Positions 5,150 to 61,299 of a stretch of DNA of 64,000 nt are shown piece after piece; positions within the stretch are counted from its first letter, which is position 1; the number at the start of each line of letters is the position of its first letter. The notes under the pieces are model-generated. The model did no database searches and was not told the origin of the DNA. It was given only the letters and a program-made list of their open reading frames with translations. A program made the translations under genes and the position numbers. Location of the stretch: positions 164 to 64,163 of the forward strand of contig JBBSYO010000022.1 of the NCBI GenBank assembly GCA_038045185.1, given 5' to 3'. This stretch comes from Nanobdellota archaeon (GTDB taxonomy: Archaea > Nanobdellota > Nanobdellia > Pacearchaeales > GW2011-AR1).

Positions 5150-5547
5150 AAGCAGTAGCAGCGAAGATAACGCGAGGATTGAACATTGGAAGCAATTTGC
5201 TTGCGAGCGATAACAGCGGAGCGCGCATTGTGCGCATTACAGGCGTAAAACACGGTAAAAGCCGCAAGGGCAGACAGCAGACTGCACGTGTTGGAGATAT
5301 GGTGAAGGTGTCTGTGCAGGCCGGCAAGCCAGACATGATTGGAATAGTTTTTGATGCGATTGTTATCAGGCAAAGAAAATCTTATCGACGTTTGACTGGA
5401 GAGCACATTATGTTTGAAGATAATGCAGTTGCATTAATGAAGGACGATAAGGGCAACCCGAAAGGAACACAAATCAAGGGAGTAATGGCGCGTGAAGCAG
5501 CAGACCGATGGTCTGTTGCTGCGAAAATTGCGCAGTTTGTACTATGA
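5146..5547 (+). CDS. rpl14: 50S ribosomal protein L14 (uL14)
   Basis: 133 aa; ...LLASDNSGARIVRITGV... is highly conserved L14. Confidence 0.9.
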   Translation: MKAVAAKITRGLNIGSNLLASDNSGARIVRITGVKHGKSRKGRQQTARVGDMVKVSVQAGKPDMIGIVFDAIVIRQRKSYRRLTGEHIMFEDNAVALMKDDKGNPKGTQIKGVMAREAADRWSVAAKIAQFVL

Positions 5548-5900
5548 GAGTTATAAAAAATTTAATGGGAAGATTGGGAATGAAAAAAATAGACGGCTCA
5601 ATTACCACTTCCCCCAGCCAGAACTTCCAAGAATATTTAAAAAGAGTAAAAGAAATTAATTCTTGTGTGATCTTGGCTCGAAAAGGTTTAGGCGAGGGAA
5701 GATTAAACGAGGTTAGCTGCTATTTAGATGATATCTTTTTAAAACAATCTGACTTAAAGTTTTATGTAGAAAATAGTGTTGTTTTGGGCATTATGCCTGA
5801 TTATTATCGTGATATGAGCTTAATTTTTTCTAAGGAACTTTTAGCAGAAGTTAGCGGTATTGAAAAAGATTATTTGAATGCGGGGAGAAGAGCGGCATGA
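5544..5900 (+). CDS. hypothetical protein (AT-rich ORF inserted between rpl14 and rpl24)
   Basis: 118 aa from the ATG overlapping the L14 stop (ATGA) to the ATGA overlap with L24; conspicuously AT-rich versus the flanking ribosomal genes; no family recognised. Confidence 0.4.
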   Translation: MRVIKNLMGRLGMKKIDGSITTSPSQNFQEYLKRVKEINSCVILARKGLGEGRLNEVSCYLDDIFLKQSDLKFYVENSVVLGIMPDYYRDMSLIFSKELLAEVSGIEKDYLNAGRRAA

Positions 5901-18106: not shown

Positions 18107-18715
18107 AGAAAATCGTTGAAATTTCCTACCGAACCGGAGCAAGCTCCGCGGTATAAAAAACTCCTTGAATTCATCTTGGCAGTTTTTTAGCCAGAGAACA
18201 AAAGACTAAAATCTACTCCGATTTAGATAAAGGATTTTGTTCTCTGTATTCGGAAATGTCAAGATGCCTGATGACTTGCATCTTGAGCACACAAGGTTTG
18301 CAACTTTAAGCAAATCTTGCTGTTTCTGATTCACGATTTTCTAATTAGAATCGTCAAGAACAAAGTTCTTGAGCGCCTCGAAAATCTTACGAGATTTTCG
18401 CAGTTTTACTCCACAGCAAGCTGCGGGGTATTCAACCCAAAAATTCTAATCAAAAAGTCCTTGAGTTTTACCACATGTCAAAAACCACTGGTTTTTGAGC
18501 ACTGCCAAGAATGCAACGCCAGGCATCCTTGAGGGTTGGATGTGTCAAAAACTTCTTTTTTGAGACCTCGCAAATATAGACATTCCAGTTGATTGTGCTG
18601 TATCGGTGTGGGAATGTATAGACAGAGATTCTTGAGCAATAAGTAGCTTAATCAGGGGGAATCTCTGTATCTTGGATTCGTAAAGTTTTAAAAAGCCCCA
18701 TCTTCTCGAGTTGAT
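18107..18715. repeat. 609-nt noncoding region packed with TCAAGA...TCTTGA-type hairpin palindromes (hairpin array A)
   Basis: At least 8 perfect stems of 8-11 bp, e.g. 18193-18245, 18259-18286, 18354-18372, 18379-18400; shares conserved blocks with 40651-41308. Confidence 0.6.
18686..18694 (+). promoter_or_regulatory. TATA box TTTTAAAAA for the GT2-alg14-alg13-methyltransferase operon
   Basis: 22-30 nt upstream of the ATG at 18716 (leaderless spacing); followed by AGCCCC, as seen at 43971. Confidence 0.45.
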
Positions 18716-28458: not shown

Positions 28459-29259
28459 CTACACCGTCTGTTTTCCGGAAAAAAATCCCTTCCAGAAGCC
28501 ATGCAGAAAGTAAGGGTGGCTTATAACAGATGTAACTAAATAAGCAGGGAGCAGGGCAAGACCTTTACGCCAAGGGTAGCTGACAAATTGGAGTAGTATT
28601 CCGGCAATTGGTAATGCTTTCAAAAGACCCACATATCCTCGTGGTATGCGAAACCCGTACATTCTTAAGAGTGCTCCAAATCCATTAGCATATTGATAGG
28701 TCTTTCTGAGGCGTTGTTTGAACGTCGTTGGGTGAACGTGGAGCACGACTGCGTTAGGATAAGCAATTTTACCTTTCTCTTTTATTTTCATATACATGTC
28801 AAAATCCTCCCCAGCTGTTCTGAAATGAGTTTCGTTAAAGAGACCTACTTCTTTTAGAGTGCTTTTACGATAGGCATCTCCTTTCTCATCTAACAGAGGA
28901 GTTATAGTTCCTTTCTCATTAAGAGTCATGGCGCGAGTAAAAATACCAAATCTGCCCCATAACTGCACGGGAAAATGCACCTTCGATGCACTTGCAACTA
29001 TTGCTGAATCCTTGAGAGGTCCAACCAGATTTTCGAGCCAGTGCTCGCCTTCGGGAATACAATCTTGGGGGAGAGTAACTACAATTTCATACTTTGATTT
29101 GTTGATTCCGTAATTCATTTGTTTGGCCATCCCCCAACCCTTGTCAATGGGAAGCACTTCAACACCCCCAGAAAACTTTTGTTTTTTTACTGCAGTCAAG
29201 ACCCTTTGCAAAATTTCCTTGTTCGCCTTGTAGATGGGAAGAACAATCGACACATTCAT
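28459..29259 (-). CDS. GT2 family glycosyltransferase
   Basis: Likely start MNVSIVLPIYK at 29259 (the ORF track extends to 29433); GT2 N-terminal region and DxD-type motifs. Confidence 0.65.
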   Translation of the reverse strand: MNVSIVLPIYKANKEILQRVLTAVKKQKFSGGVEVLPIDKGWGMAKQMNYGINKSKYEIVVTLPQDCIPEGEHWLENLVGPLKDSAIVASASKVHFPVQLWGRFGIFTRAMTLNEKGTITPLLDEKGDAYRKSTLKEVGLFNETHFRTAGEDFDMYMKIKEKGKIAYPNAVVLHVHPTTFKQRLRKTYQYANGFGALLRMYGFRIPRGYVGLLKALPIAGILLQFVSYPWRKGLALLPAYLVTSVISHPYFLHGFWKGFFSGKQTV

Positions 29260-29469
29260 GATGATGACGTGGAAGACTGCTTTAAATATCTTTTCAGAAG
29301 TGCCAAGAACCGCCAGTCGCAGACCGAGGTATGTAAACGCCATACTTCGCGTGGTCGTCGAGAATCTTTGTTCTTGATGACCGTCAAAGTTAAAAATCTT
29401 TGGGGGCGTGGTTTTTTTCAAGTTCCTTGACATCAGAAGATTTTGAGGTCTCAGAATTTCCCTAGAGAT

Positions 29470-29500
29470 TAAACCACTCGTCTTTGACGAGTGGAATTCC
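29470..29500. repeat. 9-bp stem hairpin (CCACTCGTC ttt GACGAGTGG) plus GAATTC and an AGTTTAAAAG box
   Basis: Perfect inverted repeat between two minus-strand genes; the 14-mer GACGAGTGGAATTC recurs at 41198-41211. Confidence 0.55.
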
Positions 29501-29505
29501 TCAGT

Positions 29506-30066
29506 TTAAAAGAGCGCACCTATCTCCTTAAATAAAGGATGCTTCTTGTCACGTTCAGAGAGAATTGGATTTTTTATACCCCAGATGATTGCCAGTTCGG
29601 AATCGTTCCAGATTATTCCTCCTTCGGATTCTTTATTATAAGGAGAGGTCGCTTTGTAGTGCATGATTGTATCGTCTTCAAGCGCGAGGAAACCGTGAGC
29701 AAAACCCGCAGGTATCCAGAGCATCTTATTATTCTCTCCTGAAAGAATCGTGGAAAACCATTTCCCATTGGTTGGAGAATGCTCTCGTATATCGACTGTT
29801 ACATCAAGCGCCTTGCCTCGTATCACCCTGACCAGTTTTCCTTGTGCAGAGGGATATTTCTGAAAATGCAAACCACGTATAACTCCTTTTTTTGAGCGTG
29901 ATTGGAATTCTAAGGGAAATTTAAGCGGAATATGCATGGACTTTAATTTCTCATAGTTATAGTTTTCGAAGAAAGTACCACGAGCATCTGTAAACACATC
30001 TGGTAAAATCTCAACAAGACCTTCGAATGGTGTCTTCTTGATTTCCATAGGAATGCAAACGCGCAT
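29506..30066 (-). CDS. rmlC: dTDP-4-dehydrorhamnose 3,5-epimerase
   Basis: 186 aa; cupin with RGLHFQ and WIPAGFAHGF motifs characteristic of RmlC. Confidence 0.85.
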   Translation of the reverse strand: MRVCIPMEIKKTPFEGLVEILPDVFTDARGTFFENYNYEKLKSMHIPLKFPLEFQSRSKKGVIRGLHFQKYPSAQGKLVRVIRGKALDVTVDIREHSPTNGKWFSTILSGENNKMLWIPAGFAHGFLALEDDTIMHYKATSPYNKESEGGIIWNDSELAIIWGIKNPILSERDKKHPLFKEIGALF

Positions 30067-39498: not shown

Positions 39499-40245
39499 AT
39501 GCGCTATCAAAACATTCTAATTACCGGAGGCACGGGAAAACTCGGAAAGGCGTTGCTTGCTTCCAACTTCTTCAAAAGGAAAGTGTTCGCGCCTACGCAT
39601 ACCGATATGGACATTACCAACAAAGAACAGGTAGGGCGCTACTTCAATGAGCATGAGATTGATGCAATCATACACTGCGCTGCGCTTATTAATATGAAAG
39701 AGTGCGAGACTAATCCTGCCTCGGCTATCAAAGTCAATATTAATGGGACAGGCAATTTGGTAGAAGCGGCATTAAATAAACCTCACACGAGATTCGTTTA
39801 TATCTCTACTGATTACGTGTACCCTTGTGAAAATGGACCCTATAGCGAAAGTGATTCTGCGATTCCATTTACTTCCTATGGCTGGACAAAGTTGGGCGGA
39901 GAATGTGCTGCACGCACAATTAAAGACCACTGCATTGTCCGAACAAGTTTTTTTAACCCGGTGAATATTCCTTATGACGCTGCTCCTCTTGATTCATTTT
40001 GTTCAAAGATTCCCATATCTGAGTTAGCCGAGGCAATTATTGCTCTGCTTGACAGCGATTTTGTTGGGGTGATAAATGTCGGACAGGAACGAGCGAGCCT
40101 TTATGAGATATTTAAGAAGTATAAGCCTAGTATCCAATCACAGACGCTTGAAGAAATTAATCGTGCGGCTCCAATAAAGCGCGCGAAAGATTCTTCATTA
40201 GACGTGAGCCTTTGGAATAAATTTAAGGCGCTGGCGAAGACTTAA
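39499..40245 (+). CDS. NAD(P)-dependent sugar-nucleotide reductase/epimerase (RmlD-like SDR)
   Basis: 248 aa; ITGGTGKLG, YGWTK (YxxxK); third RmlD-like paralogue in the window. Confidence 0.62.
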   Translation: MRYQNILITGGTGKLGKALLASNFFKRKVFAPTHTDMDITNKEQVGRYFNEHEIDAIIHCAALINMKECETNPASAIKVNINGTGNLVEAALNKPHTRFVYISTDYVYPCENGPYSESDSAIPFTSYGWTKLGGECAARTIKDHCIVRTSFFNPVNIPYDAAPLDSFCSKIPISELAEAIIALLDSDFVGVINVGQERASLYEIFKKYKPSIQSQTLEEINRAAPIKRAKDSSLDVSLWNKFKALAKT

Positions 40246-40248
40246 ATA

Positions 40249-40650
40249 GTGAGAAGAAAATCTTTTTTTATGGCAATTGAAAAGGTCGTGTATGAGGCGA
40301 AGCATGACGTGCAGACGAACGATGCGCGAACGATTACCACCTTGTTCGACGGAGATATATCTGATTTTTCTTGCGAACAGATACGAATCGCGCATATTAT
40401 TAAGGGTGGCTGGATGGGAAATCATTGGAGGGAGTATCCTGAATTGTACGGAGTTATTGGCACGGCGACTTTTGTTCTTGAAGATATTAATGCCAAACAG
40501 CGAAAAAAATATACACTTGACACTGGAGACCGGCTTTTTGTCCCCCCACGGGTGGCACTCAAGGTACGCGGAAAAGTTGGAACAGTTATAATTGTTTGTG
40601 CGTCCAAAGCAGATAGGAGTACAGGGACACATGCGTACCAAGTAGATTAA
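40249..40650 (+). CDS. cupin-fold protein, possibly a sugar-nucleotide ketoisomerase/epimerase (WxcM/FdtA-like)
   Basis: 133 aa; beta-rich sequence; location in the deoxysugar cluster; weak similarity to FdtA-like cupins. Confidence 0.35.
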   Translation: MRRKSFFMAIEKVVYEAKHDVQTNDARTITTLFDGDISDFSCEQIRIAHIIKGGWMGNHWREYPELYGVIGTATFVLEDINAKQRKKYTLDTGDRLFVPPRVALKVRGKVGTVIIVCASKADRSTGTHAYQVD

Positions 40651-41308
40651 ATGATAGATTCATTAGCAGTAGTTTTGTCAAGAATCAAAAACACGATGCG
40701 CCACCACACCTTAAAACGTCAGGAATCATGGATTCCTGAGCGCCTCGAAATTCAAAGAATTTCTCAGCCTCAAGAACTACGGTTCTTGATGGCCATCAAA
40801 GATTAAAAATCTTTGAGGGGTGTGGTTTGAAAAGGCGCTCGTGTCATCAAGGACTTGTGTCCTTGAATGCCATCAAGAATGTAAATTTCCAACATTCTTG
40901 AGGTTTGGATGCTCAAGAAGCGACCACACCATAAATGGTGTGGTTTTAGTCAAGCTTCTTGACATCAAAAAGTCCTTGGGTTTTTTTGTGTTGGACTCAT
41001 CAAGAACTTGGTTCTTGACATTATAAATTCTTGATGATTCAATTGCAAGAGAAATATTTTATGGATTTCTCTGCACAGAGAATTACCATTGTCAGCAATT
41101 CTCTTGTGTCAGAATTCTTGGTGTCTTGAACATGTCGGAAATCTTCGATTTCTGAGTACTCTCAGGAATTTCATTCCTGAAGCTGTCAGAATTCGACGAG
41201 TGGAATTCTGAAGTTTAAAAGCGTTTAAATTGGTTCAATAAAGAGAGCCATAAGAAAAATTTGGTCAAGCCAAGATAGATTTTTAAACAAGAAAGTTTTT
41301 GATTAATT
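40651..41308. repeat. 658-nt noncoding region with nested TCAAGA...TCTTGA hairpins (hairpin array C), homologous to array A
   Basis: Perfect stems at 40721-40737, 40770-40789 and approximately 40923-40946, among others; shares TGAGCGCCTCGAAA (40737-40750) and ATCAAAAAGTCCTTG (40964-40978) with array A. Confidence 0.6.
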
Positions 41309-48862: not shown

Positions 48863-50683
48863 ATGGACAAAAACAGTAAAATTGATTCTTTTTTAGGAAA
48901 GGTCGTGGACTTTGTCTTTTCCCGAGATGAGCGAAAATGGCTACTTTTGATACTCATTTTGGGAGTTGTGCTGCGCGTCATTGTAGCCTCAAACATACCT
49001 CCAGTAGCAGATGAAATGGTTCATGGAACGCACGCCATTGGTGTATCAAAGCTTGCCCCGTTGAGCACCATGACACAGGGTCCTGTCTGGTTCTACCTTA
49101 CAGATTACGCATATCGCATCTTTAACGTGCATCTCCTGACGGCTCGATTTTTGTCCGTTGTCTTTGGTTCTCTGTCTATTGTACTCGTGTACTTGATTGC
49201 AGGCATGCTTTTCAATAAACGGGCGGGACTTGTTGCAGCTTTCTTGCTCGCCGTCTCTATTTTTCACATTACATGGGCTGCAAGTTACCAAGACCAGACC
49301 ATGATGTTCTTCGTGCTGCTGGCCTCCTACTTTTTCATCAAAAAATATCAGAAAACAAAACAGATTTCTATCTTGAGTTCTGTTTTATTAGGAATTGCAC
49401 TATTGGTAAAAATAATTACCGGAGTTTTCATTGTCGTGTTCGGAGCATTTATGCTCGGAATATTATATAAGGATTATAAAAAAGATTCAAAAAGATTCAA
49501 AAATAATCTAAAAAGAACGCTTATTTTCGGCCTTATTTTGGTCGTGTCTATGCTGCCGTTATTTTCTTACAATTATTTTCTCTATAAAGAAAAGGGAATC
49601 GTTGACCTGCCCTTCGCACAATTTCTGAAGATTAACGTTGAGTTTTATAGCGGACCGGGTCTGGCACACGGAGAAGGATTTGTAATCAATAAACTACCGA
49701 GGAATTTGTATACCGTAATTACTCATTACTTCATTAAGGAAGATGTAATTTCTTTTGTGCTCGGACTATTTGGAATAGGATATCTCGCAAGCAGATTTAG
49801 AGAAAAACGTTTTGGAGAGTTATTTTTGCTTGCAATGTTCTTCTTTAGCATGCTGTTTATTGCTTCGGCGATAGTTCTACAGACTCATTACACCTCTTTC
49901 TTCCCCCTATTTTCAATCTTTGCAGCAGGATTCTTGACAGATAGTGCAGAAAGACTAAAGAAATTCAAGTATTGTCGCCATATGGCGTATGGCGGAGCGA
50001 TTATCCTTCTTATTTTCATGCTTTACTCGCTCAGAGGACCGCTCACTTCGCAGAGCGCAGTAGAAAAGGCGAGAAGCTTTGCCATCAATTCTATTGATGG
50101 AAATACATTGGTTGTACTTGATTCAAGAATTTATCGGGGGACGAATGCCTGGACGTTCAATGATAAACATTACGTAGAATCCAACTATCTTGCCCAGATT
50201 ATGGACATATCTGATGTCACGTCGGAGCGGGTTCCAGTAAAGATGATGTTTATAGAATGTGTAACTGACGATTGCGGATGGGGCACAGTCAAGGATCAAC
50301 CTGAGTTTAATCGGTCAGTTGAACAAATAGTTGAAGCTTTTAAGAGTGCTTCACAGAAGACAACTGTTATTTCTGGAGGGGGTTCAATAAGCGGCGTGCG
50401 TGGAGCGGAAATTACTGGAGAGCCATTCTTTAGGACATACGAAGTCATCGTCCGGCTCAAGCCTGCGATGCTAAATGCGGTTGATTCGACACATAGCCAT
50501 TTCTTTTACCATATCCCACGCAACGAGAATCCGGAACAGGCCTTTGATTATTATTCTGTCAATGGGGGACCAGACACGCTGTTGAATGTCATATCCTACG
50601 CAGCGCTTTATGTTATTCTAGGTCTTGCTACGCTTTCCATTGGTCTGCCTTTCTATCTTCTTTTTCGGCGCAATACTAAATAG
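48863..50683 (+). CDS. GT-C fold membrane glycosyltransferase (ArnT/PMT-like), second paralogue
   Basis: about 606 aa from ATG 48863 (TATA-like TTTATAAAA at 48833-48841); many TM helices plus a C-terminal soluble domain; contains the 11-nt tandem duplication at 49478-49500. Confidence 0.6.
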   Translation: MDKNSKIDSFLGKVVDFVFSRDERKWLLLILILGVVLRVIVASNIPPVADEMVHGTHAIGVSKLAPLSTMTQGPVWFYLTDYAYRIFNVHLLTARFLSVVFGSLSIVLVYLIAGMLFNKRAGLVAAFLLAVSIFHITWAASYQDQTMMFFVLLASYFFIKKYQKTKQISILSSVLLGIALLVKIITGVFIVVFGAFMLGILYKDYKKDSKRFKNNLKRTLIFGLILVVSMLPLFSYNYFLYKEKGIVDLPFAQFLKINVEFYSGPGLAHGEGFVINKLPRNLYTVITHYFIKEDVISFVLGLFGIGYLASRFREKRFGELFLLAMFFFSMLFIASAIVLQTHYTSFFPLFSIFAAGFLTDSAERLKKFKYCRHMAYGGAIILLIFMLYSLRGPLTSQSAVEKARSFAINSIDGNTLVVLDSRIYRGTNAWTFNDKHYVESNYLAQIMDISDVTSERVPVKMMFIECVTDDCGWGTVKDQPEFNRSVEQIVEAFKSASQKTTVISGGGSISGVRGAEITGEPFFRTYEVIVRLKPAMLNAVDSTHSHFFYHIPRNENPEQAFDYYSVNGGPDTLLNVISYAALYVILGLATLSIGLPFYLLFRRNTK

Positions 50684-50784: not shown

Positions 50785-51042
50785 CTATAGCAAAGGACGC
50801 TCTTGTTTCCCCACGGTGTGCGCCTTTGCCATCAGTGAACGACAGACTATCGGGTAAAAACTTATGTCGTTCACTATATTTACCACGCCCTGCGCTGATG
50901 CGGTAGGTTCGATATTTGAAGAGCTTCTGAGAAAATCCTTCATTTTAGATACAATTTCAAATGCTGATGCTCCGCCGCTGTTTGCAATATGCACCACCCC
51001 TTTCTTCTCCGAAACAATTGGCTTGGCAAGTGGATGCCAAAG
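50785..51042 (-). pseudogene. C-terminal fragment of an RmlD-like sugar-nucleotide reductase (gene remnant)
   Basis: An 85-codon frame LWHPLAKPIVSEKKGVVHIANSGGASAFEIVSKMKDFL... resembles the RmlD C-terminal segment; no N-terminal Rossmann part or ATG. Confidence 0.4.
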
Positions 51043-51109
51043 TTAACACTCGTTAAAATCCGCAGACTTTAGTCTGCAGTTGTTTTTGCTGCAGATTTTC
51101 TAAGTGGCT

Positions 51110-51225
51110 ACAAAACCACGAACAAGCCCCGCATCTCAAGAATGCCTAATCTACATTCTTGATGACCATCAAGAAATAAAATTTCTTGAGGCTTTAGTGC
51201 GGGGTTAAAACTAGCAGGTTTTGTG
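51110..51225. repeat. nested multi-helix element (hairpin array D core); possible structured RNA
   Basis: Outer stem 51110-51117/51217-51224; inner stem 51127-51133/51198-51204; internal hairpins 51137-51163 and 51169-51189, both of the TCAAGAA(T) type. Confidence 0.5.
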
Positions 51226-51277
51226 ACTTTCCTTCTCAATTAAACCTCCTGCTCCTATGATTACAACTCTTGATAAA

Positions 51278-52510
51278 TCAGCCAAATGAAACCACCTCCA
51301 ACTTAGGGAAGGGCGTGATTAGCCTAAAACGCTTAAACATGGTCTTTAAACGATTTACGAAACTGTCTTTGTAGTTCCATGATAATAAGATGAATGTCCT
51401 GTCTTTCTCTGATTTGAGTGCGTCAATTGGTCTGACAGGGATATGCACGCCCGGAGTAAGTTTGCCCTGTTTTAAGGAAGTGTCATCGACGATATACTCG
51501 ATATCTTCTTTTGTTATCCCACAATAATTCATTATCACTACGCCTCTCGCTGGGGCTCCAAGACCAATGAGCTTGCCATTCCTGCTTTTTTCTTCTTCTA
51601 TAACTTTTCTTAAATCTGCCCTGTATTTTTCAACCTTTGATCCGACGGAATCATAGATGCTGGAATTGACAAGCCCCATTTCATTCTCTTCCTTGAGCAA
51701 CCGTGCGACTGCATCAGAGGCAGGTCGCGCATGTTCGTCTTTCATGGCGTAGACGCGCAATGAGCCTCCCTGCGTAGGAATTTTTTCGACATTTACAATC
51801 TTTAATCCTGCCATTCTAAATGTTGAAGCTAATGAGTGCAGCGAGAATGTGTACACATGTTCATGATAAATAGTGTCAAATTCTCCGTTCAATATTGTTT
51901 CCAATGCGTATACTCCCTCCATTACGAGCACTCCGGAATCTTTCAATACTATGCGGGTCGCTTTCAACAAGTCTATATTATTTGGGGTGTGAGGTATAAC
52001 GTTTAATGCAATAACAAAGTCAAATTTCCCTCGTGTCTTTGCTATGTGGGAAGCGGTCGAGGTGTTGAAGAATTCTGGGATGTAATCGACTCCCTTTTCT
52101 TCATTCAATTGAATAAGATTACGCGCTGGATCAACTCCAACGATATTAGGGGTATATTTTTTAAGGAACTCAAGCAGAGTCCCGTCATTTGAGCCTATCT
52201 CTAATATTTTAGCGCTTGAATTCAAATTGAATGCGGCTGCCAAATAATCTGCAACTTCCTTGAGATGGTTTATATTAGTTTGTGAGCCTGCTGATAAGTG
52301 CAGATAGTTTCTAAATAGTTCTTCAGGTGGTACAATTTGTTCTAATTGAACTAAAAGGCAATGCGGGCAATAAGCGAGATTTAGGGGATATGCCTTTTCA
52401 TTTTCTATTTCTTCAGGATGAATAAAGGCATTTACTGGAGGGATGTCCCCTAATTCAAGGAAACGATTCAGGCCCTCATAGCCACAGGATTTACATTTTA
52501 AATCATCCAT
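51278..52510 (-). CDS. NDP-hexose C-methyltransferase-like protein (TylCIII family), paralogue of 44001-45227
   Basis: 410 aa; CKSCG...CPHC Zn-ribbon, ILEIGSNDG motif I; same three-domain architecture. Confidence 0.68.
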   Translation of the reverse strand: MDDLKCKSCGYEGLNRFLELGDIPPVNAFIHPEEIENEKAYPLNLAYCPHCLLVQLEQIVPPEELFRNYLHLSAGSQTNINHLKEVADYLAAAFNLNSSAKILEIGSNDGTLLEFLKKYTPNIVGVDPARNLIQLNEEKGVDYIPEFFNTSTASHIAKTRGKFDFVIALNVIPHTPNNIDLLKATRIVLKDSGVLVMEGVYALETILNGEFDTIYHEHVYTFSLHSLASTFRMAGLKIVNVEKIPTQGGSLRVYAMKDEHARPASDAVARLLKEENEMGLVNSSIYDSVGSKVEKYRADLRKVIEEEKSRNGKLIGLGAPARGVVIMNYCGITKEDIEYIVDDTSLKQGKLTPGVHIPVRPIDALKSEKDRTFILLSWNYKDSFVNRLKTMFKRFRLITPFPKLEVVSFG

Positions 52511-59609: not shown

Positions 59610-59680
59610 TGCGCGGTACGGGAATCGAACCCGTAACCGCGGATTGGAAATCCGCTATTTTGCCATTAAACTAACCGCGC
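59610..59680 (-). tRNA. tRNA-Gly (anticodon UCC)
   Basis: 71 nt; 7-bp acceptor GCGCGGU/ACCGCGC, D stem GUUU/AAAU, anticodon stem GCGGA/UCCGC with loop UUUCCAA, T loop UUCGAUU; no encoded CCA. Confidence 0.75.
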
Positions 59681-59720
59681 TTGTTATTCTTATCAAGAAA
59701 GATGTTTTAAACCTTTTCAA

Positions 59721-59795
59721 CGCCCTCGGCAGGATTTGAACCTGCAACCTTTGGGTTAGGATCCCACTGCGCTATCCGGGTTGCGCCACGAGGGC
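59721..59795 (-). tRNA. tRNA-Arg (anticodon CCU)
   Basis: 75 nt; acceptor GCCCUCG/CGAGGGC, D stem GCGC/GCGC, anticodon loop AUCCUAA, T arm GCAGG-UUCAAAU-CCUGC, discriminator G. Confidence 0.72.
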
Positions 59796-59796
59796 A

Positions 59797-59881
59797 TGTG
59801 GGCGCTAGGATTCGAACCTAGGAAGGCACTAAGCACAGTAGCTCTTGAGGCTACCCCGTTTGACCGCTCCGGCACGCCCAC
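59797..59881 (-). tRNA. tRNA-Leu (anticodon CAA), class II with a long variable arm
   Basis: 85 nt; acceptor GUGGGCG/CGCCCAC, anticodon stem GUAGC/GCUAC with loop CUCAAGA, 16-nt variable arm, T arm CUAGG-UUCGAAU-CCUAG. Confidence 0.72.
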
Positions 59882-59907
59882 ATCTCAATGAGAGATAGAA
59901 AGGCGTT

Positions 59908-61095
59908 TTAAAGGTTATTATGGATAGATGAGAAGATTTTATCTGCGACTTGTTCGGGCGAGAGATTCGAAGTGTCAATTACCAAGGTCGCGTCTTTTTT
60001 CTGCTCACGATAATCGAAACCGTACATCTTTTTCCAGTTTTCCGCCTCCTGCGATTCTCTTTTTGTTAATAACTCGCGCGCGGCTTCAGGAGAAATGCTG
60101 TCTCGCTGGGCTACACGCTGAACACGGGTGTCGAGATCGCCTGTGAGCCATATTTTAGGACGGGCTTGCGGTAGCATATGAAGGGAGAGTTTTCCGTCTA
60201 TAACGACATTTCCTTTTTGTGCATGACGACGTTGAACTTCGTCAATTATCTCATGCGTAACTGGATTTTTTCCAAACGAGGTCTCCCAAAGATTAACAGT
60301 TGCCTGCGAATCATTTGATGCAGTGTAATTTGGGATAGCAATATTGCGAGAGGCACATAGCTCGGCGAAGACAGGATAATATGGCTGGTCTTTGGCGATG
60401 CCTCTCCCTAAATCTTTGAAAATCCTGCCTGGGCTAAGATATTCGAGATTTAGTTTTTTTGCCAAAAGACGCGCGGTTGTTGTACTGCCTGAGCCAGGCA
60501 AGCCGGAAATTGCGATTACCAAAGGAGAGTGTTCATTTTGGGGACATTCTAATTGTTTTATAATTGCCTCGACTTCCTGCCCCGGGGTGAGCTGGGCTGT
60601 ATCAAGTATAATTTTATAGTGTTTTGTATTGCGATGGTCGTATCCGTAGATACGCTGCGCGCGCTCGACTTCCCACTTTTCTCGCTGCTCTAAATCGCGC
60701 TGTATTTCTTCATATGATTTCTCGGGGTGGGCGCGTCTCTGGCGTTCGACGCGGACTGCAAGAGGGGCAGTAACAAAAATGAGCAACGCGTTATTGAGAT
60801 TCTTACAATTTTCAACTGCGAATCGTGAATCTAATATGAGATGTCCTTCCTGCGCAACACTGCAGGCATTATTATTCAGGACGCGAATTTCGTCATCAGA
60901 AAGGTTGCCAAGGTAAGAAAGGAACTGCCCTGAAAATCTGTTCGCTTTGACAAGATCTGCGTGACGCTCACGCAACAACATCCCTGTAGAAATGAATTTC
61001 CACTTCCTTAGAAGCGATAGTTCCTTGAGGGAGTTCGCCAGCGTGGTTTTCCCACTTCCAGGCAGACCTGCTATTGCAATAACTGTATAACGCAT
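59908..61095 (-). CDS. cmk: tandem duplicated cytidylate-kinase-like (archaeal Cmk/AAA) fusion protein
   Basis: about 395 aa from ATG 61095; two P-loops (IAIAGLPGSGKTT and IAISGLPGSGSTT), each followed by an archaeal Cmk-like domain of about 190 aa. Confidence 0.65.
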   Translation of the reverse strand: MRYTVIAIAGLPGSGKTTLANSLKELSLLRKWKFISTGMLLRERHADLVKANRFSGQFLSYLGNLSDDEIRVLNNNACSVAQEGHLILDSRFAVENCKNLNNALLIFVTAPLAVRVERQRRAHPEKSYEEIQRDLEQREKWEVERAQRIYGYDHRNTKHYKIILDTAQLTPGQEVEAIIKQLECPQNEHSPLVIAISGLPGSGSTTTARLLAKKLNLEYLSPGRIFKDLGRGIAKDQPYYPVFAELCASRNIAIPNYTASNDSQATVNLWETSFGKNPVTHEIIDEVQRRHAQKGNVVIDGKLSLHMLPQARPKIWLTGDLDTRVQRVAQRDSISPEAARELLTKRESQEAENWKKMYGFDYREQKKDATLVIDTSNLSPEQVADKIFSSIHNNL

Positions 61096-61299
61096 GCTTG
61101 CTCGACAGAACATGGAAAGCTTTATAAGTACTATTGTAGGACAAAATATGAAGACGGCCATAGTGATCAGGAAACACCTGTTCCCTTTCCGAACACAGCA
61201 GTTAAGCTGATCACGTCGGTCGCGGTAGTCTCCGAACAGAGGCGAAACACCGATGCTGTCTTCGCCATATTCCTTTTTATAATCCAGTTTCTTCTTAAT

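Follow-up and report, generated by a model that had tools for sequence, protein, structure and literature searches.

Does the compact set of nested helices between two converging genes of a DPANN archaeon encode a small structured RNA, or does it have another origin? The question is raised by a 64,000-nt stretch of contig JBBSYO010000022.1 from a Nanobdellota archaeon (assembly GCA_038045185.1), referred to here at its full length as the window, in which a first-pass annotation had noted a closed multi-helix junction at 51110–51225 and judged it more typical of a small structured RNA than of a simple terminator. The segment does lie between converging genes: PMT_2 on the + strand ends at 50683 and a C-methyltransferase gene on the − strand ends at 51278, leaving a gap of 594 bp. 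We propose that this gap instead houses mobile DNA. Positions 51047–51227 probably constitute a PATE-like non-autonomous IS200/IS605-derived element that carries an SMR-A-like twin-hairpin insert in a DPANN (Woesearchaeota/Nanoarchaeota) archaeon, and this element is most likely one intact copy of a dispersed family. In the following, D denotes the window element at 51047–51227 and L with a number denotes comparison loci or contigs (for example, L038 and L074).

D extends beyond the 116-nt segment. It aligned over its full length with L074:1261–1434 (174 bp) and L038:6176–6295 (120 bp), with similarity ending at both termini and unrelated flanks. The two upstream palindromes that had been described beside the junction, GCAGACT-TT-AGTCTGC (51062–51077) and TCTGCAG-N9-CTGCAGA (51073–51095), were both located and, given the extent of this alignment, are part of D. 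The element measures 181 bp, its internal open reading frames (ORFs) are all shorter than 45 aa and a transposase gene is absent. Judged from the flanks, the − strand is the one on which the window copy has the orientation treated as canonical across the family; coordinates below refer to the + strand.

51043–51046, + strand: TTAA, the putative target motif, abutting the left end of the element
51047–51227, + strand: whole non-autonomous element of 181 bp, probably PATE-like, aligned end to end with L074 and L038
51047–51061, + strand: left-end spacer CACTCGTTAAAATCC (15 nt from the target to the left hairpin); compare CCCTCGTGAAATCC in L038 and L074
51062–51077, + strand: left subterminal hairpin GCAGACT-TT-AGTCTGC, a near match to the left-end hairpin of L131
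51073–51095, + strand: overlapping palindrome TCTGCAG-N9-CTGCAGA, enclosed by AAAATC/GATTTT
51110–51117, + strand: 5′ arm of the outer stem, ACAAAACC, pairing with 51217–51224
51127–51133, + strand: 5′ arm of P1, CCCCGCA (the inner stem of the first-pass annotation and a hairpin of the right-end type)
51134–51191, + strand: twin-hairpin module, consisting of TC, the TCAAGAATG hairpin, TGACCA, the TCAAGAAAT hairpin and GG
51136–51162, + strand: hairpin TCAAGAATG-N9-CATTCTTGA
51169–51189, + strand: hairpin TCAAGAAAT-AAA-ATTTCTTGA
51192–51197, + strand: CTTTAG, the original P1 loop (family J1/2 motif YTAAAR on the − strand), conserved as alignment columns 13–18
51198–51204, + strand: 3′ arm of P1, TGCGGGG
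51207–51222, + strand: small right-end hairpin AAAAC-TAGCAG-GTTTT, whose 3′ arm shares bases with that of the outer stem
51217–51224, + strand: 3′ arm of the outer stem, GGTTTTGT
51223–51227, + strand: GTGAC at the right terminus (GTGAT in L038 and L074), past which each copy continues into unrelated sequence

Every helix previously listed for the nested architecture was found in the sequence, most of them at the positions given; some were off by one base, such as the first internal hairpin, which spans 51136–51162 with an N9 loop rather than 51137–51163. Homologues carry counterparts of the end structures. At the place corresponding to the AAAATC/GATTTT pair, L038 and L074 have a GAAATC...GATTTC stem; the small right-end hairpin reads AAAAC-CCAAA-GTTTT in L038 and AAACCC-AAA-GGGTTT in L074; and P1 of L038 is a plain hairpin, CCTTGGC-TTTCAAG-CCAAGG. 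Palindromes lie close to both termini, with distances of 15 nt for the left hairpin and, from the right end, 5 nt for the AAAAC/GTTTT hairpin and ~23 nt for P1. The termini themselves, CACTCGTT... (CACTCG...) and ...TTTGTGAC (...GTGAC), are not inverse complements, so terminal inverted repeats are absent, and the 8-bp pair ACAAAACC/GGTTTTGT is internal on the left side.

An insertion polymorphism was detected in a homologue. L038 and L051 come from related strains, and their flanks are 95–99.6% identical. L051 shows an empty site in which ...GATTAATAAA is directly followed by TTAATAAAATAAG, and at exactly this junction L038 carries 120 bp (ATCAC...CGAGGG). The boundaries are unshiftable and a target-site duplication is absent, a test made on the homologue and not on the window copy. 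In the empty L051, TTAA lies just to the right of the insertion point. The same arrangement, an end ...CGAG(G/T)G followed by TTAA, is common to the three D-type copies (D, L038 and L074) and recurs in L016 and L020 of a related subfamily. At site D, the filled junctions are 51046/51047 and 51227/51228, and the flanks joined without the element would read ...CCAAAGTTAA directly followed by TTTCCTTCTCAATT...; no empty allele of this site was found among other assemblies, which had either an identical intergenic region or contigs ending inside the element.

D and the tnpA-bearing elements of its lineage have similar ends. An IS200 TnpA query identified one Y1 transposase among the family loci, in L041, with more than 1,800 relatives at E ≤ 1e−20, many of them named Nanoarchaeota/Pacearchaeota IS200/IS605 transposases and most on short contigs. 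A second, similarly abundant Y1 family adjoins the first in L118–L122, and both families (Y1_Tnp, PF01797) are abundant in Nanoarchaeota and Pacearchaeota. The first type (L041, L100 and L101) was rejected as the source of the D ends, from which its own ends differ. Copies of the second, found in different contexts (L118, L124, L129 and L131), carry tnpA only. Their left end consists of TTAA, 13–18 nt ending in (A)GAAATC(C) and a hairpin with a TTTAG or TTTCAA loop, while their right end consists of GGAAAC, a hairpin with a CTTTAG or TTTCAA loop and terminal GAGGATGTCAT. TTAA directly abuts the autonomous copies L124, L129 and L131, and the sequence further left is unrelated. On its + strand, D has the same layout: TTAA, CACTCGTTAAAATCC (15 nt ending in AAATCC), GCAGACT-TT-AGTCTGC and, toward the right end, CCCCGCA-(twin hairpins)-GG-CTTTAG-TGCGGGG followed by AAAAC-TAGCAG-GTTTT-GTGAC at the boundary.

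Individual segments match as well. The D spacer compares with the IS200-family left ends ...CAAGAAATCC (L124) and ...AAAGAAATC (L131), and the left hairpin of the tnpA-bearing L131, TGCAGAGTTTAGTCTGCA, is close to GCAGACTTTAGTCTGC in D. The left hairpin of D also resembles the right-end hairpin CTGCGGAC-TTTAG-TCCGCAG of L118. A CTTTAG loop is common to P1 of D and the right-end hairpin CGCACA-CTTTAG-TGTGCG of L124, and the plain P1 of L038 is of the same type as IS200-family right-end hairpins (for example, CGCACC-TTTCAA-GGTGCG). Like IS200/IS605 elements in general (for example, IS608 and IS200), D has subterminal hairpins at both ends and an insertion site beside a tetranucleotide without duplication, and its left-end order of target, spacer and hairpin is that of tnpA-bearing Nanoarchaeota elements; unlike them, it lacks tnpA, and its right tail differs from that of the sequenced autonomous copies.

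Three further observations concern the autonomous elements. A solo copy of the left hairpin of the first IS200 type is present in the window at 18409–18431 (− strand) within array A (ATACCCCGCAGCTTGCTGTGGAG, versus ATACCYCACAGCTTGCTGTGGGG in L041, L100 and L101); it shows 0 mismatches to the degenerate consensus, with 0 chance matches expected, and a similar motif lies near 18125–18150. The right end of L100/L041 (for example, L041:565–633) forms a three-way junction in which CCCCAC and ...GTGGGG enclose the hairpins TCCGCY-ATCA-RGCGGA and TTTGCC-CTCA-GGCAAA, an architecture as in the D core with unrelated sequence, and its copies differ by one compensated change. Finally, L118–L122 contain, at ~650–1640, two different IS200-family tnpA genes in tandem, with the second element starting a few bases from the right end of the first (...GGATGTCAT), which suggests that one IS200 inserted at the extreme end of another.

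TnpA of IS608-type elements recognizes the hairpins at the ends when the DNA is single-stranded, cuts the element out as a circle and integrates this circle 3′ of a tetranucleotide. By analogy, we infer that D is mobilized in trans by TnpA and that TTAA is the recognized target. A Y1 (HUH) TnpA encoded elsewhere in the genome would bind the end hairpins in single-stranded DNA and excise the element as a circle, which would then be re-inserted 3′ of TTAA ('peel and paste'), and the twin-hairpin block would have lodged in the loop of the right-end hairpin P1.

The closest known counterparts of such an element are PATEs (palindrome-associated transposable elements), which were first described in Haloquadratum walsbyi and have ends related to IS605-type transposons (PMC3119063); PATE-like elements also occur in Geobacillus and are mobilized in trans (PMC10055086). 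D shares with PATEs the lack of a transposase gene, terminal inverted repeats and target duplication, the palindromes near both termini, a short fixed motif at one end, ends resembling tnpA-bearing elements of the lineage and an organization into heterogeneous, clustered families. It differs from them in its host, a DPANN archaeon instead of a haloarchaeon or Firmicute, and in its autonomous relatives, which are IS200-type (tnpA only) rather than IS1341/TnpB-type. Its sequence family is also new, and its interior is a conserved nested-helix block, not just fused ends. Most likely, then, the kind of element is known and the sequence family is new in DPANN archaea. [quoted passage not shown]

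Family members share a common layout. In 30 units, a variable closing stem P1 is followed by a YTAAAR junction, by CC, a TCAAGAA hairpin, a bulged T and GG, and then by CC, a bulged A, a TCAARRAT hairpin and GG. P1 variants include ACCACACC/GGTGTGGT, ACCGCACC/GGTGCGGT and CTCCATC/GATGGAG, with CCCCGCA/TGCGGGG in the window. The internal hairpins of D had been assigned to the same TCAAGA family as other arrays of the window, and this relationship held: six TCAAGAA-N(1–20)-TTCTTGA hairpins are present against 0.02 expected, and hairpins of the type TCARRR...YYYTGA are confined to four long intergenic regions (18.1–18.7, 29.35–29.5, 40.65–41.3 and 51.05–51.23 kb). The family makes up about 3% of the 64-kb window. 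A search with the strict core pattern TCAAGAAN{3,20}TTCTTGATGRCCATCAA, using one genome per GTDB species, returned 20 loci in ~11 GTDB species, all of them metagenome-assembled genomes of Nanoarchaeota/Woesearchaeota, against ~0.6 chance matches as estimated from database size and the information content of the pattern. A looser pattern retrieved 64 metagenome loci, and viral contigs scanned for the core yielded 0 matches.

Copies at unrelated loci of a single genome were near-identical with sharp 5′ boundaries, and other assemblies of the same population end within the element. An orthologue comparison through FtsZ/MBL synteny added nothing, as its contigs proved to be from one organism. Changes that break stems were seen in individual copies: L008 has lost P1, C-A mismatches occur in L020 and L025, and the window itself contains a degenerate copy at 29353–29407. 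No recurrent neighbor gene family was found at the family loci, where only housekeeping genes and common regulators clustered, and no transposase was found near them except for one IS200 in L041; blastx of the intergenic regions identified no gene remnant. Because near-identical copies are scattered, copies decay and neither strand nor orientation is favored, the family is best described as dispersed mobile DNA whose hairpins are needed by active copies, and not as genes on which selection acts copy by copy.

Besides D, three other mosaic arrays of this hairpin family are located inside the glycosylation island of the window (18107–18715, 29340–29510 and 40651–41308), at a regular ~10–11.5-kb spacing and with units in both orientations. 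Array C contains at least 12 hairpins, including one unit that is 97% identical to a unit at the unrelated locus L077; compared with L077, a 50-nt two-hairpin insertion (GTCAGGAATC...TTTCTCAG) is present in the junction. Genes beside arrays show decay: in the region 39499–40650, an RmlD-like ORF (39499–40245) covers just the first half of its Pfam profile, and the ORF after it, of 133 aa, has no family. For the GT2 gene, the longest possible ORF (28459–29433) extends into a degenerate twin-hairpin copy, so the true start probably lies further in. Two strain-specific differences were noted at comparison loci. Relative to L027 and L051, L038 has a 735-bp insertion (5154–5888) adjoining a twin-hairpin copy, with inverted ends AGTAGAAATAAAAATCAATTTTC...GAAAATTGATTTTTACT, a 155-aa ORF and no tRNA at the site. 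Relative to L061, L055 has a 51-bp indel (2585–2635; GATCCACGAAAG...GAGAGTGGTTTT) ~400 bp from a family unit, which does not obviously belong to the hairpin family.

Within the element, the twin TCAAGA hairpins form a block of 50–65 bp with inverted ends (family consensus CCTCAAGA...TCTTGAGG). Within the P1 hairpin, the block lodges at a constant place, where one stem arm meets the loop; further copies occupy other hairpin loops and a GGA^TGC junction. Three backbones are known with and without it: D and L074 carry the block and L038 lacks it, L033 carries it and L079 lacks it, and L055 and L037/L070 carry it as opposed to L018 and L015, respectively. The tnpA elements themselves are free of the block; the sole strong match in 61 kb of tnpA loci was an unlinked copy ~5 kb from tnpA in L041. 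Because homologous backbones occur without it, the block looks like a separately inserted small repeat, and we infer its independent mobility from this presence and absence. No pair of otherwise identical sites with a strain-specific block insertion was found, the backbones with and without it being homologous (paralogous or orthologous).

A precedent exists in the SMR-A elements of Haloquadratum, small mobile repeats for which PATEs and IS605-type transposons serve as hosts: they enter the palindromes near the termini by an unknown mode of mobilization (PMC3119063). Like SMR-A (HqIRS42/43/55; PMC3119063), the block is short and transposase-free, has prominent inverted ends and no evident target duplication, and resides inside near-terminal palindromes of PATE-type elements. 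Unlike the ~110-bp SMR-A elements, it measures only ~50–65 bp, is unrelated in sequence, consists of two hairpins around a TGGCCA center and is additionally found in other hairpin loops and at the GGA^TGC junction.

Several points weigh against a PATE-like origin of D. The filled/empty pair is the only one, it does not involve the window site and it could reflect precise deletion instead of insertion. The TTAA rule is based on a small sample of five non-autonomous copies and three autonomous contexts. No tnpA is present in the 64-kb window. The autonomous copies, though they have the layout, target and left hairpin in common with D, end in TGTCAT instead of the GTGAC/GTGAT of D-type copies and so do not single out the cognate transposase of D. 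Furthermore, the sequence of the twin-hairpin core is more conserved than the presumed transposase-binding carrier hairpin, beyond the need of plain selfish spread, which hints at a sequence-specific function. Given this conservation and the perfect 14-bp palindrome TTGATGGCCATCAA that the core contains, it may be asked whether the core (CC-TCAAGAA hairpin-TGGCCA-TCAARRAT hairpin-GG) is itself a functional module spread across Woesearchaeota by the hairpins of Y1 transposons. It could, for example, serve as a sequence-specific DNA or RNA site for a host or transposon protein or disable the transposon end that it occupies, as suggested for SMR-A. We regard such a role as unlikely.

Folding and covariation bear on the RNA question most directly. 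As the first-pass annotation had suggested, we computed minimum-energy folds, and these were far more stable than those of shuffled sequences on both strands. RNA folding of 51040–51277 gave z = −4.7 (+ strand) and −4.8 (− strand), with none of 200 shuffles equaling the observed value, and DNA folding of 51047–51227 gave z = −5.5 and −5.2 for the two strands. The closed junction held in part: the inner stem and both internal hairpins are robust and appeared in every minimum-energy and centroid structure, while the outer 8-bp stem is less secure, being seen solely in the − strand DNA fold and missing from the RNA minimum-energy folds. The outer stem is nonetheless kept, and covaries, in homologues (CACAAACC/GGTTTGTG in L074 and CACAAAAC/GTTTTGTG in L038).

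Compensatory substitutions, likewise proposed as a check, were abundant. Across 30 non-redundant homologous units, 95.9% of pair cells were paired, compared to 39–53% in controls slid by one to three columns. Changes on both sides were found in 14 of the 30 pairs, including five of the eight in P1, and none of 500 shuffles reached the observed scores. In D, the usual CC...GG pair beside one hairpin is replaced by TC...GA, a compensated change. Because of this pairing and the double changes, the architecture is real and maintained. The covariation most likely reflects hairpins that are required in single-stranded DNA during transposition.

Strongly non-random folds, clear covariation in P1, P2 and P3, junction and stem-base nucleotides conserved in ~11 species and the A+T-rich, TATA-like sequence often found upstream of the conserved ATCA(C/A)AAA end would also suit a multi-copy small RNA gene, that is, a three-way-junction RNA with its own promoter that acts by its conserved junction and stem bases, for example in protein binding. 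We consider this quite improbable. Rfam 15 returned nothing relevant for the whole window at gathering scores or for arrays C and D at E ≤ 10, with a best E value of about 3 at 50900–51350. A covariance model of the core scored both strands of almost every copy. Orientation was unbiased as well: the upstream gene shares the strand of the unit 17 times and lies opposite to it 12 times, and seven units are antisense to both neighbors. In a wobble test, 13 G-T (G-U) pairs versus seven A-C pairs showed no significant strand bias. A promoter search upstream of the conserved 5′ motif recovered generic A+T-rich sequence only, without a motif at fixed distance, and the TATA-like sequences stand at variable distances outside the repeated unit. 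Individual copies carry the stem-breaking changes listed above, and one copy is an insertion polymorphism with transposon-like ends. In view of the absence of an Rfam match, the modeling of both strands, the unbiased orientation, the insertion polymorphism in a homologue and the transposon-like ends, the initial suggestion of a small structured RNA is not supported. Its companion claim, that the structure is not a simple terminator, stood: the hairpins are rich in A+T, and neither P1 nor the outer stem leads into a T-run.

The hairpins might have acquired a function in their present place. Between the two convergent genes, D lies 50 nt past the stop codon of the methyltransferase on the − strand, and it is known that bacterial repetitive extragenic palindromic (REP) sequences stabilize upstream mRNA. 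An exapted 3′ structure that acts on the methyltransferase mRNA as a stabilizer, or as a transcription barrier between the converging genes, would be compatible with a transposon origin. It appears improbable all the same, as a U-tract of the kind used in archaeal termination is absent and family copies occur in every orientation and position relative to genes.

Another reading would retain the PATE and add an omega-RNA-like guide RNA at its right end; with this guide, and TTAA as the adjacent motif, a TnpB-type nuclease from another locus would cut empty sites and thereby retain the element. PATEs frequently encode omega RNAs for use in trans (PMC10055086), the conserved multi-helix block is found inside the last ~120 nt before the right end, the usual place of omega RNAs, and a TTAA target motif is defined. 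We nevertheless hold this to be very unlikely. The related autonomous elements carry tnpA only, Rfam gives no match (IS605-orfB and HEARO-type families included) and the twin hairpins are missing from some otherwise complete copies. In addition, a crude regular-expression screen, which is not a homology search, saw no long ORF with the TnpB-typical C-terminal CxxC...CxxC zinc ribbon in ~700 kb of loci.

Very little credence is likewise due to a REP/REPIN-like element kept by a domesticated single-copy RAYT, with the arrays as equivalents of bacterial interspersed mosaic elements (BIMEs). Like REP/BIME sequences and REPIN-RAYT systems of proteobacteria and BOX elements of Streptococcus pneumoniae, the family comprises short extragenic palindromes akin to IS200-type hairpins, with covarying stems and mosaic intergenic arrays. 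Its hairpin units occur in mixed orientations, and the twin hairpins recall REP doublets. Unlike those systems, D resides in an archaeon and lacks a GTAG/CGTC head, its hairpins starting instead with TCAAGA or with a C-rich stem after AAAC/AAATCC. A phmmer search with E. coli RayT (E ≤ 10) against six-frame ORFs of ~700 kb detected nothing, at limited sensitivity and in incomplete genomes, and the lineage has many ordinary multi-copy IS200 elements on short contigs. Because both ends are complete and accompanied by the target motif, D is a whole mini-transposon and not a solo REP.

It is exceedingly unlikely that D is a classical MITE, mobilized by a DDE transposase and bounded by ACAAAACC/GGTTTTGT as terminal inverted repeats, despite the outer 8-bp inverted repeat and the very high MITE density reported for a Woesearchaeal genome (PMC11602168). 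The homologous element reaches 63 bp further on one side, so that the repeat is not terminal; the filled/empty pair lacks a target-site duplication; and CACTCG... and ...GTGAC, at the true termini, do not form an inverted repeat.

Further candidates were rejected outright: an intrinsic terminator (A+T-rich hairpins without a T-run after P1 or the outer stem, in an archaeal host), an integron attC site (no RYYYAAC/GTTRRRY boxes or gene cassettes), hammerhead and other small ribozymes (no core motifs), C/D or H/ACA sRNAs (Rfam matches at chance level only) and origin recognition box (ORB) repeats of replication origins (elements at many loci).

With D read as a PATE-like element, a false lead is removed, since nested mobile DNA explains better what looked like a convincing 'structured RNA', and a transposase-free, IS200/IS605-derived hairpin repeat family is now documented in DPANN archaea. 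As repeats of this family break metagenome assemblies, their knowledge helps when Woesearchaeota genomes are binned and finished. The family also provides filled and empty sites in nature which, together with the simple TTAA rule, are useful for the study of single-strand transposition in uncultured archaea. The parallel with haloarchaeal PATEs and SMR-A suggests that small repeats in transposon-end palindromes may be general in archaea, and the twin-hairpin module provides a compact object for testing this generality.

The surroundings of D belong to an archaeal N-glycosylation island that encodes AglB/STT3, Alg14, GT2 and GT4 glycosyltransferases, a flippase and Rml enzymes. The host is a groundwater archaeon, and the methyltransferase next to D is encoded on contigs from Hainich groundwater metagenomes. 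The same convergent gap contains a 70-aa ORF on the − strand (50785–50997), which is called as a gene in one assembly, lacks any Pfam match and is perhaps what is left of a gene, as well as a palindrome with an 11-bp stem at 50834–50875. Elsewhere in the window, three tRNA genes (Gly, Arg and Leu) are clustered on the − strand at 59610–59882, and a lone 5S rRNA gene, unlinked to 16S/23S, lies on the + strand at 61150–61264, its start overlapping the end of a long ORF (59908–61161).

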